Below, piece after piece: positions 2,919 to 39,357 of a DNA stretch of 64,000 nucleotides. A program made the translations under genes and the position numbers. A model generated the notes under the pieces. That model was not told the DNA's origin and searched no databases. It saw only the letters and a list, made by a program, of their open reading frames with translations. The DNA comes from Rhina ancylostomus (lineage: Eukaryota): positions 32,880,700 to 32,944,699 of the forward strand of contig JARFYF010000022.1 in the NCBI GenBank assembly GCA_030265395.1, in the 5' to 3' direction. How positions within the stretch are numbered: the first letter of the stretch is position 1; the number at the start of each line of letters is the position of its first letter.

Positions 2919-2960
2919 AAAGAGTTTGACGAGGGGATGACATCAGAAACAACTTGCTTG
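2919..2960 (+). CDS. LSP1: Probable LSP1 internal coding exon (KEFDEGMTSETTCL), phase 0/0
   Basis: Acceptor gtctgtaatttcAG and strong donor TTG|gtgagt. The 42 nt are open and join in frame to the 4533 exon. Protein similarity not recognised, so the call rests on splice signals and phase. Confidence 0.55.
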
Positions 2961-4532: not shown

Positions 4533-4576
4533 ATCAGTGAAAGAACGGAATCCTTGAACCGCTCACTTAAGAAGAG
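4533..4576 (+). CDS. LSP1: LSP1 coding exon (ISERTESLNRSLKK-S), phase 0/2
   Basis: tttctgatttccAG acceptor and GAG|gtaaga donor. Matches human LSP1 LIDRTESLNRSIEKS as recalled. Confidence 0.93.
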
Positions 4577-11503: not shown

Positions 11504-11585
11504 TAACAGTGTTAAGAAGACCCAGCCCATAACTAACATATCAAAGATTGATGAAAGATTGGAGCAGTATACCAATGCCATTGAG
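11504..11585 (+). CDS. LSP1: LSP1 coding exon (S-NSVKKTQPITNISKIDERLEQYTNAIE), phase 2/0
   Basis: ttacAG acceptor and GAG|gtaatt donor; 82 nt restores the frame. Matches LSP1 SNSVKKSQPDLPISKIDQWLEQYTQAIE and the caldesmon SKIDSRLEQYT motif. Confidence 0.95.
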
Positions 11586-12573: not shown

Positions 12574-12705
12574 AGCACAACAAAGTCACTGCGGCACACG
12601 TCATTGGACATCCCAAACCTATCAGAGGATGTGGCCACCATGAAGAGCCTATGGGAGACAGGCGATGCTGCCAGTAGCACAGCTACCAGAGGGACACCGT
12701 GTAAG
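12574..12705 (+). CDS. LSP1: LSP1 coding exon (STTKSLRHTSLDIPNLSEDVATMKSLWETGDAASSTATRGTPCK), phase 0/0
   Basis: Long pyrimidine tract plus (CA)n before cAG; AAG|gtaagg donor. Matches LSP1 RQASIELP...KSRWETG...TPSCK. Confidence 0.93.
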
Positions 12706-14382: not shown

Positions 14383-16323
14383 NNNNNNNNNNNNNNNNCA
14401 GTGGGTCAGGCAGCATCTGTGGAGGGAAATGAAAAGTCAATATTTCGGGCTGAGACCTTTCAACTGGACTGAGAGAGAGCGGAGATCGCTCACCTCTTTA
14501 TCCTGGCTGTCTCACCAACCCCCTGTCTTCCATCCTATCCCCATATCACTTGATTCCCCTAATGTTCAGAAGTCTATCAACCATTGTTATGAATGCAAAC
14601 AAGAACAGCCTCCATAACCCTCTGTGGCAGCAAATTGCAAATATTCACCAGCCTCAGAATGAAGACATTTCTCCTCATCCCAGTCCTAAATGGCCTTTCC
14701 CCTAATTTGAGACTGTAATTCCTGGTTCTGGACTCCATAGTCAGGGAAGCATTCTGCCCGCATTTATCCTGACGAGCCCTCCAAGTATTTTGTATTTCTC
14801 AATGTTATCACCTCTCATTCTTCTCAACAAGCAAATTGAAGCAAAGTCTAATCAATCTGTCCTCCCATCACAAGGACCTGTCTGATGAACCTTCTCTGCA
14901 CTCCCTATATAGCAAATATAACCTGCTTTAGGTAAGGAGACCAAAAGTGAACATGTCCAGGTGTCATCACAATTGTCCAGAGTGTCATGGATGGCAGAAG
15001 CATAGGACTGGTGCCACTTGCAAGTTCCCTCCATGTCACATGCTATCCTCACTTGAACACATTGTCATTCCTGCTTCAATCTGATGGAAATGCCTTTGGA
15101 AACGAGGTCTGTGCTTGGGCAGAAGTAATTGAATGACAATAGACATGAGGATGCAGCACACAAGGGAATGGGAATGGGTCTAGAGGAGATGTAAATGAGG
15201 ATAGCTAAAACAGTGTCTGAATCCAACTGAGTGTACCTCACCATCTCCATCTGCCTGTTAGTACACAAAAACTCCAGACTTGTATAAATCCAGTGTTATG
15301 CGCCTGCTGAGAGAGAAATCTGGAATGACACAGCTCTGCACAGCAACAGAACCTTGTACAATGTGTTCATGTGAGGGGACCAGAATGAGTCCCACCCATG
15401 AAACAGCCAAGAATGTCTTTGACAGCTGAAGGCCCTTGATGCTCACATTAAAAACCTTAATAAAAATCAATAGAATAATTACTTAAGTTTAATTAAACTT
15501 AATTAAAAATGAAATCAAATTAGTTGACTACGTCACGTTTTCTGCAGGACTCCAGCAGGGTTTAATTGTAGGACACATCTCGTAAATAGTGAGTCAAATG
15601 TGGTCAGCAAGTCCAGGCCTCCAGCATTTGCATGCAAGTCCTTAATTTTGCAGCACCACAAGGTTAATTACTGGCAATTCCACGTGGATGCTTCCTGACT
15701 TATTGAATATTTACAGTACTTTATGTTCTCATTACAAATTTCCAGCATCCGTAGCATTTTGCTTTCACATAAATTTGAATTGTTGTCATTGTCACCCAGA
15801 AACAAAAGTGCATTTTTATTTCTTTGAAANNNNNNNNNNNNNNNNNNNNNNNNNNNNNNNNNNNNNNNNNNNNNNNNNNNNNNNNNNNNNNNNNNNNNNN
15901 NNNNNNNNNNNNNNNNNNNNNNNNNNNNNNNNNNNNNNNNNNNNNNNNNNNNNNNNNNNNNNNNNNNNNNNNNNNNNNNNNNNNNNNNNNNNNNNNNNNN
16001 NNNNNNNNNNNNNNNNNNNNNNNNNNNNNNNNNNNNNNNNNNNNNNNNNNNNNNNNNNNNNNNNNNNNNNNNNNNNNNNNNNNNNNNNNCTGACTTGTTG
16101 TCATCTCCAAACATGTGATCAACTTATCTCAACCACAGCATGATTGAAAGTCAAGAAATGCTTGTTCGAAATAACAAAGCATTAAGATAACCCAATTCCT
16201 GCTCTTTGAAATCCAAGACAGATGTTTGCAAATGACTGGTTTCGTACTTGGCTGAAGATCATCCCTTAATGTTTCAGTAATGAGATGTTTTCTCTTTCCC
16301 CCAATATATCTATCTTTATCCAG

Positions 16324-16422
16324 GATACTGATGGACTGAAAATAGGTGTCTGTGACCTCATCAATCAGTGGGTTAGCAAGAACCCAGAGTCCAGTGTCAA
16401 GTCCAGTCCCTCCAAGCCTGTA
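16324..16422 (+). CDS. LSP1: LSP1 caldesmon-like coding exon (DTDGLKIGVCDLINQWVSKNPESSVKSSPSKPV), phase 0/0
   Basis: ctttatccAG acceptor and GTA|gtaagt donor; 99 nt in frame. Resembles caldesmon ETAGLKVGVSSRINEWLTKTPDGNKSPAPKPS. Confidence 0.88.
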
Positions 16423-19400
16423 GTAAGTAAAACTTTCCACCCTCCCCAATCTGTAGTTAACTTATCATTTCACTAGTAAATGTTTATCATAAAATACATT
16501 ACTGCAAGGTGACAGTTTCTCTTATGCATCACATTTTTGTACTGACACTATTCTCAAGAGATTCAGGCACATTTAAGTAGGAATGAATGTTAATAAGTGT
16601 GTGATATTGTAGCTCGTACAACACAAACTGATATTTTCATTTGCCCCAAATCATAAGCATGATTAAAACTTAAACATCAAAAACAGTTGAAGATTGATTG
16701 GTTTAACTTTTTAACTTGCATTACTTTAATATTAATATTAACCTATTTCATTCAAAGTTTTACTGCAACATTAAAATAATGCTGAAGGGAAAATCTAGGC
16801 AATTAATCAGGTCCAACAAACTTGTTGGTTATTAGTGTTTTTGGTATTTTGGGAATAGGATACCAACCATTGTTTCCAATTAGAAATGGAATTAGAAACA
16901 TCTTCACGTCAATCTCTAGTCAGCACAGAGACTACAATTAGATTCAGATGGCTCCTGCTGGAATGTACTTGAACATGGATGTCAGACAATCCTTGCAGTC
17001 AGACAATGTGTTGCATTCAGTGTCTTGGCTCATGCATGAAGCAGGCCCATCTGGTGAGGGTTGCAGAGAATGTCCTACATATGCAAAGACATGCCTCACC
17101 CTGGGTTAGTGTCTGTAGGAGAGGAGCAGAAAATATTGAGAAGGAAAAAAATTGCAAGTTGTATGACCTTTCAGAGAATTTGTGAGCCTAGAAGAAAGTC
17201 TTTTTTGCCTCAGTTTTTCCACAGAATTGTGAAAATTCCACAGAATTTCCACAAAAAGTGAACTTTGCTGTGCTAACTACACAGGTGTGATTGAATGGAA
17301 GGCATTGGGAGGGGGTGTGATTTGTTGTTGTTAAAAATAACCATAGAATCTTGAGATCATCATCCAGAAATCTTATGAGTCATACCAACAGTTTCCCTTA
17401 ATGTATCCCAGTAATTTAAAAAAATAATTCCAGCAAAGTCCACCATTACCTCAAGGATTTTGCTTAGATTGTAGATTACAGACTCTACATAGACGACAGA
17501 GAAAATGGAACATATGTTGTAAATTCTGAATTACATAGTTGAATTGTGTTTTAGTCAAAGGATTCAGAGATAGACTACATCATGAAAATGCTGCAAATGG
17601 ATAGCAAGTCTGGCAGCATTCAAGCCACAGAAAAAACAGGTTAACATAATAGGCATTAAATACATAGTCTTCATTATTTACCTGTCTTCTCCTTTACACA
17701 TTGATTCCAGTAATTTTTGTCTGTTTTTTTCAGATTTCCACCTAGTGAACTCCATGTCTAAATGATATTCAGGGCTGAGCTAAAGGCTGGAATTTTATTG
17801 AGGGATGAATAGTTAAACGTGTGTAAGAGTTGAGGTGGCAGGGGGTGGGCTCCATTTCAGTGCATCAATTTATCTGTTTTTAGAGTTTTTCATTAACTGT
17901 TGTTAACAACTACAGGGTGAGCTGTGTGACTTGAACCATAATCCAATGTGTCAAGTTTTGGTTTATCAGTAGGGCAGGTGAGTTAGAAGGTTCTGGGATC
18001 GAGCTACTGACCAAGACTTGTTCTTTCCATGTAGGCTGTCAGCCCAGTGTAGAACTGAGGGGGAATGGGTTTTTGCTGAGATGTAGCCAAGGTTCTGCCC
18101 CTTCAGTTATCCAGTCTTCCTGGACCAGTGCTATGTTTAAAAAAAAAGTTAATTGATCAATTTACTGTGTATGGACACTGCTGATGAAGAGAGAATATTG
18201 AATTTGATGATGAGTAACAGTCACAACACCTGAATTCCAGATCTCTTTTAGACACGAATCTTATTCATTCCATGGAAAAAGGAAGCAATTTTCAGCCCAT
18301 GTTAGTTGCCTTAAGTCTATTGAGCAAAAAACATTGTTTTTCACCTTGTATGTATTCATTCTTTTTCTTCTCTTCAGGCTCTCTCCAAATCTTGGATTTG
18401 CTTTGCCTCTGACTAACTCCTCTTCTTCTGCATCTTCTGTACCTTTTCTTAAATCCTCCTGTACACTGGCTTCTCAGAAGGTAATTTTTCTGTGGACTTT
18501 TAACTAACTGCAAGGCGTGTTGAAAGGTGGCCAGTTTGGCATGTGTGACGAATGTAATAGCAGAGACATGGCTGTACTGGAGCTGAGTGTGCATTCCTTT
18601 CTATTCATTAGGGTTTCCTGGGGTTTTTGTTGCGAAATACCCTGAGGATATTCTATTCAACATCATTGCAGGTCCTTTTTCAGTCTTAAGAACAAATTCT
18701 TTTGGGATTTTCTAGGTCATTTTGTAGATGTTTCTAAGTGAAACCCCCGTGGGTTGTGATCTCCAGTGATGTTTCACATTATCAGACAGAGAAGTTACTG
18801 TGGGAGTGAGAGCAGTGATTTCTGTGCACAATATCTTCTTTGTAGCAAGGACAAGGAAAAGACCCAGATAGCACTGTTTTCCCTCATTTTCCCATCCAAG
18901 AGGCATTCTCTGTGTGTGAACAGTTTCAATTAATGTGTGTTCATCACACCCGAGGTCCATCCTGTCCTCAACTGGCATTCTTTTATGGATACTTCAACTA
19001 GTTGCTAGTCTCCAGCTATTCCACCACACTTCCTTCGCAGCTCAAAGTAATGCATCTTGCTGTTGCACCCATGTCAGTGTCTTTACCGATTTACAATGAT
19101 TGGATTCTGGACTTTTGTTGTAATTTGCCAATGGCATTCTGTCTCTGGGTGCATCTCTGGCACTGAATCCAGCTGTGCTCGCCTCTTGTGCTGGTTAAGG
19201 GAATCCTAAGGCATTATGACACCATTGCCACTCCACTCCCCCCCCCCCACCCCCCCCATCTGCCTAGCACCACCCTCACCTGGATCCACTTATCACCTGT
19301 CAGCTCTTGCTCCACCCCTTCCCTCCACCTTTTAATTATGGCCACCTCCCCACTATCTTTCAGCCCAGATGAAGGGTCTTGATCCAAAGGGTCGACTGTC

Positions 19401-25802: not shown

Positions 25803-25895
25803 GAAATTAAGGCAGGGGATGTGAGGAGCAAAAAGAATATTTGGGAAAACAAGAGTGATTCCCATTCTTTCACCAAACTACCAAATGCTGGAAAG
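25803..25895 (+). CDS. LSP1: LSP1 coding exon (EIKAGDVRSKKNIWENKSDSHSFTKLPNAGK), phase 0/0
   Basis: cttctatAG acceptor and AAG|gtgagt donor. Matches LSP1 DIVAGDMSKKSLWEQK and caldesmon DLRPGDVSSKRNLWEK. Confidence 0.93.
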
Positions 25896-27282: not shown

Positions 27283-27387
27283 AATCACCCCTCAAGTGCA
27301 AGGTACAAGTTTGTGACGACTGGTCACGGCAAATATGAGAAAGTCCCCATTACTGATGATGAGCACGGTACCAATGGAAATAGTTAA
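27283..27387 (+). CDS. LSP1: LSP1 last coding exon (NHPSSARYKFVTTGHGKYEKVPITDDEHGTNGNS*)
   Basis: tttattttAG acceptor; TAA at 27385-27387. RYKFVxTGHGKYEKV is the LSP1 C-terminal signature. Confidence 0.96.
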   Translation, partial: NHPSSARYKFVTTGHGKYEKVPITDDEHGTNGNS

Positions 27388-28005
27388 TCAAGTGAGTTCA
27401 ATCCTTTTTGATGTCAACAAGCAAAGTGCACGTTGGGTTTGAGTAGGCCATCAATAAAATTAACTTGCCATTGGGTTGAAATGCTGACAATGGGGCTCAT
27501 TGTCGAACTAATGTCCACCAGTGCCTGACCCACAGTTGCAGCCTGTGGCACAGGAGTAATTGGCAGTCCTACCGACTGAGTTCACCTGGCCAATCCCACA
27601 GTGTGCACTCCTCCATTTTCCATTTGCCACCATGTTGGGAAGGTAATTTCACATGCTGATGATATCACTTCATTTGCTTTCCATTGATTGATGTAGAAAT
27701 CCTAGACATCGCCCTTACTCGGCTGTGTACTGCTTTTGGATAGGGCGTGTCCTCTACGCCAAAGAAATTTCACAGCTGAAGCAACACTTGGCTTTCTATC
27801 TCAATCCTCTGAGAGGAAACTGGAATTTGAACAATTTAAAAAGATGAATAAACAGGATTAGGGCTAGTTTCTGCCTTGATTTAATTGTTTGCCCCAAATG
27901 CTTCTGCTGCCTTGGCTGGTATTTTGGGCAAACAGTTGTATAGTAATGTTCACCAAAGTTCTTTTCCCTCCCTCTCCCCCAACCCCACCTCTTGCTCTAC
28001 AATAG

Positions 28006-37268: not shown

Positions 37269-39098
37269 TTAGGCTGCTGCTTTTGTTTGCCAACCTTTTG
37301 CAGTTCGATTGAAGTCCTTAAGTTCTTCATCATCAATAGCTTTGCGATGCAACCCTGATTCAATCAATGTGCTACTAATCCTCTTCAATGGACCTTGAGC
37401 TGCTTCTTTTAACTTTCTGGCATCAAATCGAGGCCTAAAAAGTAGAAGAGGCAGACGACAACCAAACCATGTTTTCTGTTGTGTTTGTCCGGATTTCTCC
37501 AAACCTGGTTCCTGTTGGTCTGGTCTGCTTGCCTCTGTCAAATGCTCTTTCCATGCAAACATTTGATACAGCATCGCATCCCACATCTTATTNNNNNNNN
37601 NNNNNNNNNNNNNNNGAGACCCTTGTTTCCCGTCTTCTGCCTTCCTTTGATTCTGCTTTTGTAATTCTGACTCTGACAGTTCTGGCTGTGGTTCTGGCTC
37701 CGGAAATTTTGGTGGCTCTTCTTCCACCACCATATGTTTCTTGAGACGAGTCCAACCACTTATCTTGCTTCTTGGAGGTTTAATCCTGTCAGCAGATTTC
37801 AGTTGAGGTGCTGCTTTTGGAAATGATTTCACTTCTTCATGGTTAGTTGTTTTAGCAACAGAGTTAGATGGCCTGGGTTCAGTTTCTACTTTGTCTTTCT
37901 CTATGGTAGTCATCACTATATGGTGGATTTCCACATTGGTACCAGCAGTGCCAAATGTAAGAGCATCGTTTTGCATGGCTGAGACATCACAAGCCTTTCT
38001 TGTGAAGTTCTCTTGAGGCACATCGTGTGTAAAGGTCTTTTTGCTTGGAATTTCAAAGTTTGGAGTCTCCCACCTCGGAGGCTCGTAGGTGGGAGTCTTT
38101 GTCCTTGGAGGCTCGTAGGTGGGCGTCTCTGTCCTCGGAGGCTCGTAGGTGGGCGTCTTCATCCTCGGAGGCTCGTAGGTGGGCGTCTTCGTCCTCGGAG
38201 GCTCGTAGGTGGGAGTCTCTGTCCTCGGAGGCTCGTAGGTGGGCGTCTACGTCCTCGGAGGCTCGTAGGTGGGCGTCTTCGTCCTCGGAGGCTCGTAGGT
38301 GGGCGTCTTCGTCCTCGGAGGCTCNNNNNNNNNNNNNNNNNNNNNNNNNNNNNNNNNNNNNNNNNNNNNNNNNNNNNNNNNNNNNNNNNNNNNNNNNNNN
38401 NNNNNNNNNNNNNNNNNNNNNNNNNNNNNNNNNNNNNNNNNNNNNNNNNNNNNNNNNNNNNNNNNNNNNNNNNNNNNNNNNNNAGATTCAACTTTGGAAA
38501 TGTTTGCACTGGTAACCTCTGTGCCAGGCTGTGTATGAAAGCTTGGGGAAAATCGCGGTGGTATTGCAAGCATTGGCGATTGTGGTTTTTTGCTACTCGG
38601 TTGAACCGTTGAAATGAAGAACGTCTTTACAGGAACCATGGGCTGCAGTAGTTGACCAGGGACCTGGTTCTGAGGTTCAGCTGGTATCTGCGGTCCACTT
38701 ATCTGTGTCTTAGGGAGAATCTCTATTTTGCCCTTGTAAAATGTTTTACGAATAGGAAATAGACTTACGCCATGCGTTGGGGTTACTGTTGTCGGATATT
38801 TTCTGAGAGGCAGCAAAGGAGCTGTTAGGGATTGAGGAGATCGAGTCCGGCATTCACACTGCTCTGGATCAGGACTAGCCTCGCTAACAGGAGACAGGCA
38901 AGCCCGGAAGGGTTTAGATGGGTACGAGTGGGGCTTATCTGATCCATCCTCGGGTTGTAACGATATTTCTGCAACTTGCCGTTTTGCAATCCGCTTCAAG
39001 ATTTTTTGTAACCTCGCATTGTCTTTGTTGGGCTTTGGTGCCAGAGGTGGAGGTGGCGTGGGCCGCGGAGAAACACAGTGGTGCATGGCCATTAACAT
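37269..39098 (-). CDS. PRR33: Proline-rich protein 33; single coding exon with two N-gaps, an internal 10-aa repeat and one in-frame TAG at 38247-38249
   Basis: The N-terminus [22 protein letters not shown] and C-terminal blocks [18 protein letters not shown] and [16 protein letters not shown] match recalled PRR33 motifs. ORFs 38247-39155 and 37269-38162 share one frame. A minus-strand acceptor (ttgtgtttcAG, 39108-39109) lies 9 nt before the ATG. Position and strand match human LSP1-PRR33. Confidence 0.88.
38062..38324 (-). repeat. 30-bp coding minisatellite (unit gtcctcggaggctcgtaggtgggcgtcttc), 8 full units plus a partial one, running into the N-gap
   Basis: Directly visible period of 30; encodes TPTYEPPRT(K/E). 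Confidence 0.97.
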
Positions 39099-39357
39099 TT
39101 TAATTCCCTGAAACACAATGAAAGAAAACTTAATTCCATTGTGATTTGATATCACACACTGCCAATTCAGTTGAGTATCTCAGAAGAAGAATCTCATGCT
39201 GGATCCTTTCCTGTGGTCTAATTAACAGGACAGACTCGAGGCTGAATGGCCAGTCCTGTTGTGTGTTGGCTACGGCAGAGACGTCTGCACTTCTCAACAC
39301 ATAAGGCAATGAAGTGCTGATCATTCTAATTGTACACATCCACAACATCATGGGTAA

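Follow-up and report, generated by a model that had tools for sequence, protein, structure and literature searches.

The window, the whole 64,000-nucleotide stretch of the Rhina ancylostomus genome analyzed here, carries seven exons of LSP1 on its forward strand. These are a 42-nt exon encoding KEFDEGMTSETTCL (2919..2960), which is missing from some relatives' isoforms (e.g., P0009); an exon encoding ISERTESLNRSLKK (4533..4576); an exon with the conserved SKIDERLEQY helix (11504..11585); the site-A exon (12574..12705, phase 0), which carries the first of three repeated motifs, VATMKSLWE, and ends in TPCK; the site-B exon (16324..16422); the site-B′ exon (25803..25895, phase 0), which starts with EIKAGDV and carries the third motif, VRSKKNIWE; and the last coding exon (27283..27391), with the tail RYKFVTTGHGKYEK and a stop codon at 27385-27387. 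The rest of the 5′ exons are found as far as ~44 kb ahead of the window, and the gene extends over >70 kb in total. Positions 50 to 482 of the Pfam Caldesmon model (PF02029) are matched along it, and two of its exons singly exceed the curated 50-bit cut-off of that model (70.6 and 56.8 bits). Upstream of site A, an Arg-His-Thr-Ser stretch (12586-12612) aligns with mammalian RQ(P/A)SIELP, which we take to be the MK2 phosphorylation site; R-x-x-S is kept and the hydrophobic residue is off by one. The N-terminus, encoded ahead of the window, comes in two alternative versions in chondrichthyan LSP1 models (P0010 and P0057 versus P0003); one of them is nearly identical to the MDDFERRRELRRQKREE start of CALD1, and this suggests that alternative first exons, too, are older than the LSP1/CALD1 duplication.

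The site-B exon is 99 nt long, in phase 0/0, and encodes 33 residues free of stops, in which a V-x-D-L-I-x-x-W helix (16348-16371) is followed by a Ser/Pro-rich linker with a Ser-Pro. It is bordered by a pyrimidine-rich acceptor with a terminal CAG and by a GTAAGT donor, and it matches positions 452-482 of PF02029 with an E value of 5.9e-9 (35.7 bits). In an alignment of 71 exon-bearing LSP1 sequences, V532, I536, and W539 of the helix are among 16 invariant columns, so the exon is no chance reading. An in-frame CAG 45 nt inside the exon (16366..16368) could act as an internal acceptor; its use would remove the first 15 residues, and with them most of the helix (compare the Rhinoraja X2 model P0011, 686 versus 701 aa). 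A DNA contig of run X2 spans positions 16090-17665 with 0 differing letters, an agreement that is not independent because X2 is possibly the source sample. Contig pieces of run X1 span intron-exon borders and thus say nothing on splicing, and the site-B exon is without X1 cover. The reverse strand, too, is open across the exon, but this frame lacked support and was set aside. The 99-nt phase-0 exon is real, and it lies where the first-pass annotation had placed it, between TPCK and EIKAGDV, with both flanking exons and the tail exon in phase 0; the combination of the LSP1 tail with three Trp motifs, pointed out in the same annotation, was also found in the ray gene.

Beyond LSP1, the reverse strand carries a DUF4643 (PF15485) gene at 37272..38246, which we take to be PRR33, and a troponin T gene follows 23 kb beyond the window, its best exon matching TNNT3 at 90%, versus 79% at the CALD1 locus. 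The PRR33-type gene (37272-39179, minus strand) contains an internal tandem repeat of ~10 residues at ~38030-38320 and is interrupted by two assembly gaps. On the other side, troponin I is located ~160 kb upstream of the first matched exon of LSP1. This order (troponin I, LSP1, DUF4643, troponin T) fits the TNNI2-LSP1-PRR33-TNNT3 cluster described as locus II, in a report that also notes the LSP1-CALD1 paralogy (PMC9825255). A caldesmon profile search of the genome returned two loci, the one in the window (contig C22) and one on contig C51, where a separate caldesmon gene is flanked by a different pair of troponin I and T genes; CALD1 has likewise been described between troponin I and T genes, in a TNNI4/5-BPGM-CALD1-TNNT4 cluster (PMC9825255).

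In a tree of 25 C-terminal segments, built with the site-B exon left out and with the ray represented by sawfish, skate, horn shark, and chimaera rows, the 17 LSP1 rows stood apart from 5 CALD1-type rows with support of 97/99, and five amniote rows formed one clade (97/92). The cyclostome and LAD1 rows took no resolved place, and support for the LSP1 node falls to 82/58 when they are counted. The ray gene also carries the C-terminal RYKFV..GHGKYEK tail, which, together with the site-A and site-B′ motifs, it has in common with its mammalian orthologue (UniProt P33241), a leukocyte F-actin-binding phosphoprotein; CALD1 rows lack this tail. Synteny, tree, and tail thus agree that the gene is LSP1, as it had originally been called, and rule out CALD1. 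The automatic names say otherwise: RefSeq uses 'non-muscle caldesmon' for the sawfish protein to which the exon adjoining the site-B exon is 98% identical, and most orthologues from sharks, rays, and fish go under this name or under 'caldesmon, smooth muscle'; those from skates are called LSP1 or lsp1a. Given the separate CALD1 locus on C51, the name 'non-muscle caldesmon' on LSP1 orthologues is misleading, and it sets a trap for anyone who collects the many fish orthologues by name.

The CALD1 gene on C51 has a corresponding site-B exon (33005951-33006046) of 96 nt, in phase 0/0 and with a GTAAGT donor. The introns around the exon interrupt LSP1 and CALD1 at the same codons and in the same phases, and the two exons further agree in position, in length (33 codons in LSP1 versus 32), in an L-K-V/I-G-V..I-N-Q-W core, and in a downstream Ser-Pro. 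A site-B segment is also present in frog LAD1 and in caldesmon-like proteins of lamprey and hagfish. Taken together with the Pfam match, gene structure and homology mark the exon as a homologue of caldesmon site B and as ancestral, handed down from the common ancestor of LSP1 and caldesmon, in line with the original proposal. Its presence in CALD1, LAD1, and cyclostomes rules out a shark-specific or newly gained exon.

LAD1 (ladinin-1) belongs to the sister troponin cluster, and the frog protein has look-alikes of sites A, B, and B′; it differs in being only 23% identical to sawfish LSP1, in having the caldesmon-type Ser-Arg in site B, and in lacking the LSP1 tail. With the frog query LAD1 was not matched in the ray genome, a result that is uninformative given that query. 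In the cyclostome proteins P0306 and P0187 (lampreys) and P0421 (hagfish), a caldesmon-type site B is combined with the LSP1 tail RYKFIITGHGKYEK, and P0306 has a CALD1-type N-terminus as well; the supposedly 'LSP1-specific' tail may thus be an ancestral feature that has decayed in CALD1.

Among the matches listed, named LSP1-type models contain the exon in 4/4 cyclostome, 42/45 chondrichthyan (all 19 species), 112/113 ray-finned, 3/3 lungfish, and 14/14 amphibian rows, and lack it in both coelacanth rows (0/2), all four squamate rows (0/4), and all mammal rows (0/76, including monotremes). These counts refer to protein models rather than genomes, with rows representing isoforms and not independent events, and they omit 22 assembly-only rows (5 with the exon) and most unnamed representatives. 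Because the relatives were gathered with exon-bearing queries, as the best 120 of 678 and the best 120 of 153 matches, the inclusion counts are inflated; by the same token, an exon-carrying amniote isoform among the candidates would rank high, and none did. Within the best 120 of 153 matches, bit scores were 93-276 for fish and amphibians and at most 81 for all others. The truncated tuatara row and the partial warbler row are uninformative, and birds, turtles, and crocodilians had no informative named row. A loss specific to mammals is ruled out, since the squamate rows lack the exon too. The simplest history would be a single loss at the amniote stem, with the coelacanth representing either a separate loss or an annotation gap.

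The expectation that other non-mammals would have the exon was thus borne out in nearly all fish and amphibian models listed, and so was the statement that human LSP1 runs directly into DIVAGD: in every named mammal row the site-A exon continues straight into DIVAGD, with no equivalent segment between them. What had been described as an exon retained and a motif set restored is, however, retention only: the exon is family-wide and annotated in RefSeq, and nothing rare has been restored. The three Trp motifs are present in the ray gene, but they are not conserved across LSP1, and mammals already keep two of the three; among the matches listed, the site-A Trp is replaced by Phe in 103/113 ray-finned, 3/3 lungfish, and 6/14 amphibian rows. 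In axolotl, the LSP1 models P0162 and P0304 keep a shortened site-B exon with Phe for Trp and are missing the site-B′ exon, the opposite of the amniote arrangement.

The first-pass annotation had also seen in the exon a skippable switch. In such a scenario, the exon would be a regulated cassette whose tissue-specific skipping turns a caldesmon-like into a mammal-like isoform, the skipped form having become fixed in amniotes. The exon does preserve the frame, and its donor has the weakest consensus match (6/9) of the seven window exons, but the intronic part of that donor is a perfect GTAAGT. Annotated models of Leucoraja (X2) and Amblyraja (X4) skip the exon entirely, and Rhinoraja X2 has the 15-residue internal-acceptor form; the exon is also missing from some fish-like representatives, and a CALD1 model of Callorhinchus (X3, P0420) skips the homologous exon, so that its junction there resembles that of amniote LSP1. 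These skipped forms are, however, automatic predictions, and among the matches listed the 42 of 45 chondrichthyan models that include the exon come from all 19 species, 16 of which have no skip. In the skate cluster, for which 15 of 26 members were listed, all 10 listed assembly-only rows have the whole 591-aa frame, site-B exon included, on contigs of 2.3-2.7 kb; full frames on contigs of this size from a gene of >70 kb indicate that the contigs are likely spliced transcripts. With 10/10 such contigs including it, the exon is probably spliced in. Skipping looks minor and the exon mostly constitutive; the proposed switch retains two skips and one internal acceptor in 45 models, all from skates, and we consider a regulated cassette improbable.

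The site-B exon is not the only part in which LSP1 proteins differ. Shark and ray LSP1 comprises ~600 residues, compared to a median of 364 in mammal rows, and keeps both the site-B exon and the central charged helix of caldesmon, both of which are lacking in the mammal and squamate rows among the matches listed. Using a profile of this helix built from 3 CALD1-type rows, with a threshold of at least 30 bits, we detected it, among the matches listed, in 45/45 chondrichthyan, 75/113 ray-finned, 3/3 lungfish, and 1/1 coelacanth rows and in 0/14 amphibian, 0/2 squamate, and 0/76 mammal rows. From the match in length and the distribution of the helix, shark and ray LSP1 seems to be built like l-caldesmon, with a stepwise shortening of the protein in tetrapods; the first-pass annotation had not noted this caldesmon length. 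AlphaFold2, run with the 71-row alignment, predicted long single helices and a disordered C-terminus (mean pLDDT, 62; pTM, 0.26); for the sawfish orthologue it gave each Trp exon one short helix of low confidence (499-505, 532-540, and 567-575; pLDDT ∼50), and the three are joined by disordered linkers.

At the residue level, site B of the ray LSP1 has departed from caldesmon. Asp-Leu stands in place of caldesmon's Ser/Gly-Arg, so that the PAK site is lost, Asn-Pro replaces Thr-Pro at Trp+4, and the Ser-Pro is found at Trp+12 rather than Trp+10. Among the matches listed, the PAK position is Asp in 41/42 chondrichthyan, 93/112 ray-finned, and 11/14 amphibian LSP1 rows, and the residue after it (P4) is Leu in 42/42, 100/112, and 11/14, respectively. 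P4 is Arg in 18/19 CALD1-like rows, in LAD1, and in lungfish LSP1, and Arg or Lys in cyclostomes; within the matches listed, 8/112 ray-finned LSP1 rows also have Arg at P4, and lungfish (3/3) have the caldesmon-type Gly-Arg.

These residues bring the exon close to the short linear F-actin motif SFM, VxxLxxxFE, of which site A of human LSP1, CALD1, and LAD1 are listed as examples (PMC13364712), and to Lifeact, whose actin-facing patch consists of V3, L6, I7, F10, and I13 and whose binding is abolished by L6K (PMC7717565). The exon has Val at P1, Leu at P4, Ile at P5, and an aromatic residue at P8 in common with SFM and Lifeact (PMC13364712 and PMC7717565). The ray exon matches four of the five actin-facing positions given for Lifeact, with Trp for Phe; among the matches listed, Val at P1, Leu at P4, and Trp at P8 occur in 42/42 exon-bearing chondrichthyan rows, and 75/112 ray-finned rows reproduce all six residues of Lifeact 2-7. 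This fit to SFM and Lifeact had escaped the first-pass annotation. The closest human SFMs among the rows listed in PMC13364712 are those of FGD4 (VSDLISRFE) and DENND1C (VADLKKCFE). At P9, LSP1 exons have Val or Gly and not Glu: the Val of the ray exon is outside the SFM preference for an acidic or amide residue, with E, D, Q, or N in 64 of 65 SFM rows and Val in 0/65 in the first part of the published table, where Trp at P8 is found in 7/65 rows (PMC13364712). The exon may thus be at best SFM-like in its working and is not classed as a member of the motif. Since human LSP1 has no site-B exon, the human SFM screen could not show this repeat, and since the exon derives from caldesmon site B, a resemblance to yeast Lifeact would have arisen by convergence. 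The same part of the table contains some SFM candidates with Arg at P4 (PMC13364712), so the change from Arg to Leu need not alter actin binding. A PDB search with the exon, in a set without chains shorter than 20 residues such as Lifeact, gave only a chance match (E = 0.32). A predicted complex of the sawfish exon peptide with the genome's actin, given as two pieces, scored 0.03 against a mark of 0.34, in a run without alignments and with peptides outside the tested range of the tool, a result that counts neither for nor against binding.

The same residues bear on a second explanation, which follows the earlier suggestion of calmodulin control. Were the exon a working caldesmon site B, Ca2+/calmodulin would bind its Trp helix together with site A and free LSP1 from actin, making fish and amphibian LSP1 a second caldesmon under calcium control. 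Several features are consistent with this: the Trp equivalent to the calmodulin-binding W494 is invariant in the 71 aligned sequences, the site-B helix is amphipathic (hydrophobic moment of 0.56 versus 0.31 in the other two repeats), the central charged helix of caldesmon is kept throughout the chondrichthyan rows, and actin and calmodulin sites overlap at caldesmon site A (PMC13364712). In caldesmon, the calmodulin-binding Trps are W461 and W494, PAK acts on S459 and S489, and ERK/Cdk1 sites include T498 and S504 (PMC3172261); phosphorylation by PAK lowers calmodulin binding ∼10-fold and also lowers affinity for actin-tropomyosin (reviewed in PMC7930484). The second PAK site, S489, lies 5 residues ahead of W494, and LSP1 has Asp at the equivalent position. 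With this Asp and the lost Arg, the 22-residue segment has become acidic, with a mean net charge of −2.0 in LSP1 versus +0.1 in CALD1-like rows. Calmodulin targets, by contrast, are typically basic. The site-A Trp, the other calmodulin anchor, is moreover Phe in most bony fish. Human LSP1, which has no such exon, coprecipitates calmodulin, possibly through myosins (PMC5802837), an association for which the exon is therefore dispensable. Considering the Asp at the PAK site and the loss of the Arg, calmodulin control through the exon appears doubtful, and we regard a calcium-switched LSP1 of this kind as rather unlikely.

Our preferred explanation, which we hold with moderate confidence from sequence comparison, is that the site-B exon of shark and ray LSP1 is ancestral, usually spliced in, and the middle one of three repeated exons, likely forms an F-actin-binding helix of the Lifeact-groove type, and provided a predicted third grip that was lost in amniotes. 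Each of the three Trp/Phe repeats would fold into a short helix upon binding and, once bound, would bury its Val, Leu, Ile, and Trp in actin's hydrophobic groove, and three such repeats on flexible linkers could confer higher avidity or cross-link filaments. Calmodulin binding at the site-B repeat would be weaker than in caldesmon, as predicted from the replacement of the PAK-site Ser by Asp and of Arg by Leu. The Asp mimic might, however, also weaken actin binding, given that PAK phosphorylation lowers the affinity of caldesmon for actin-tropomyosin, and this speaks against an actin grip, as do the Val at P9, the Arg tolerated at P4 in some SFM candidates, the caldesmon-type residues kept in lungfish, and the low confidence of the predicted helices. 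A proline-directed kinase that phosphorylates the linker Ser-Pro would loosen the grip, as at the ERK sites of caldesmon. Among the matches listed, all 42 exon-bearing chondrichthyan rows have the Ser-Pro at Trp+12, and a distal Ser/Thr-Pro is present in 42/42 chondrichthyan, 57/110 ray-finned, 11/14 amphibian, and 0/3 lungfish rows. The ERK-type site singled out in the first-pass annotation therefore exists in the ray but is patchy outside sharks and rays, which makes kinase control plausible and lineage dependent.

More tentatively, non-amniote LSP1 might be considered a second caldesmon, in which site B, at first a helix regulated by calmodulin and PAK, was rewired in jawed vertebrates, by convergence on the yeast sequence, into a constitutive Lifeact-like grip on F-actin, and which tetrapods then dismantled, the central helix going first and the exon following at the amniote stem (and apparently also in the coelacanth). 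Fish, frog, and mammal LSP1 would then differ in mechanism. We see this wider account as possible, though not the likelier outcome.

The homology between caldesmon and the basic C-terminal half of LSP1 has been known since 1992 (PMC2289610), the two proteins share one Pfam family, and the exon is already contained in the automatic annotations of well over 100 proteins. A literature search, outside whose scope most older subscription papers fell, found no paper on the site-B exon, its loss in amniotes, the stepwise shortening, or the likeness to Lifeact. What is new is thus comparative: judging from the sequences, mammalian LSP1 is a reduced form, and the exon that it lost encodes a Lifeact-like predicted helix with a fixed acidic residue at the PAK site of caldesmon. 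This is a refinement of a known family by comparison and no new system.

In the literature that we found, all LSP1 biochemistry was done with the mouse or human protein, i.e., with the reduced form. If our reading is true, zebrafish and Xenopus lsp1 would be no simple stand-ins for human LSP1, and their functions might overlap with those of caldesmon; several lsp1b transcript variants have been described in zebrafish embryos (bioRxiv 10.1101/2024.09.08.611790). The SFM class would also gain a vertebrate peptide nearly identical to Lifeact, beyond the reach of a human-only screen. At site B, actin binding could be told apart from calmodulin binding by a comparison that the three-exon repeat provides naturally, between the Ser-Arg of caldesmon and the Asp-Leu of LSP1 and between forms that have the exon and forms that lack it.

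The ray genome also contains two conventional actin genes (L032 on contig C29654 and L033 on contig C118) in which residues 42-375 are encoded by a single exon, L033 having one coding intron, and at least six further intronless actin-like frames on other contigs.
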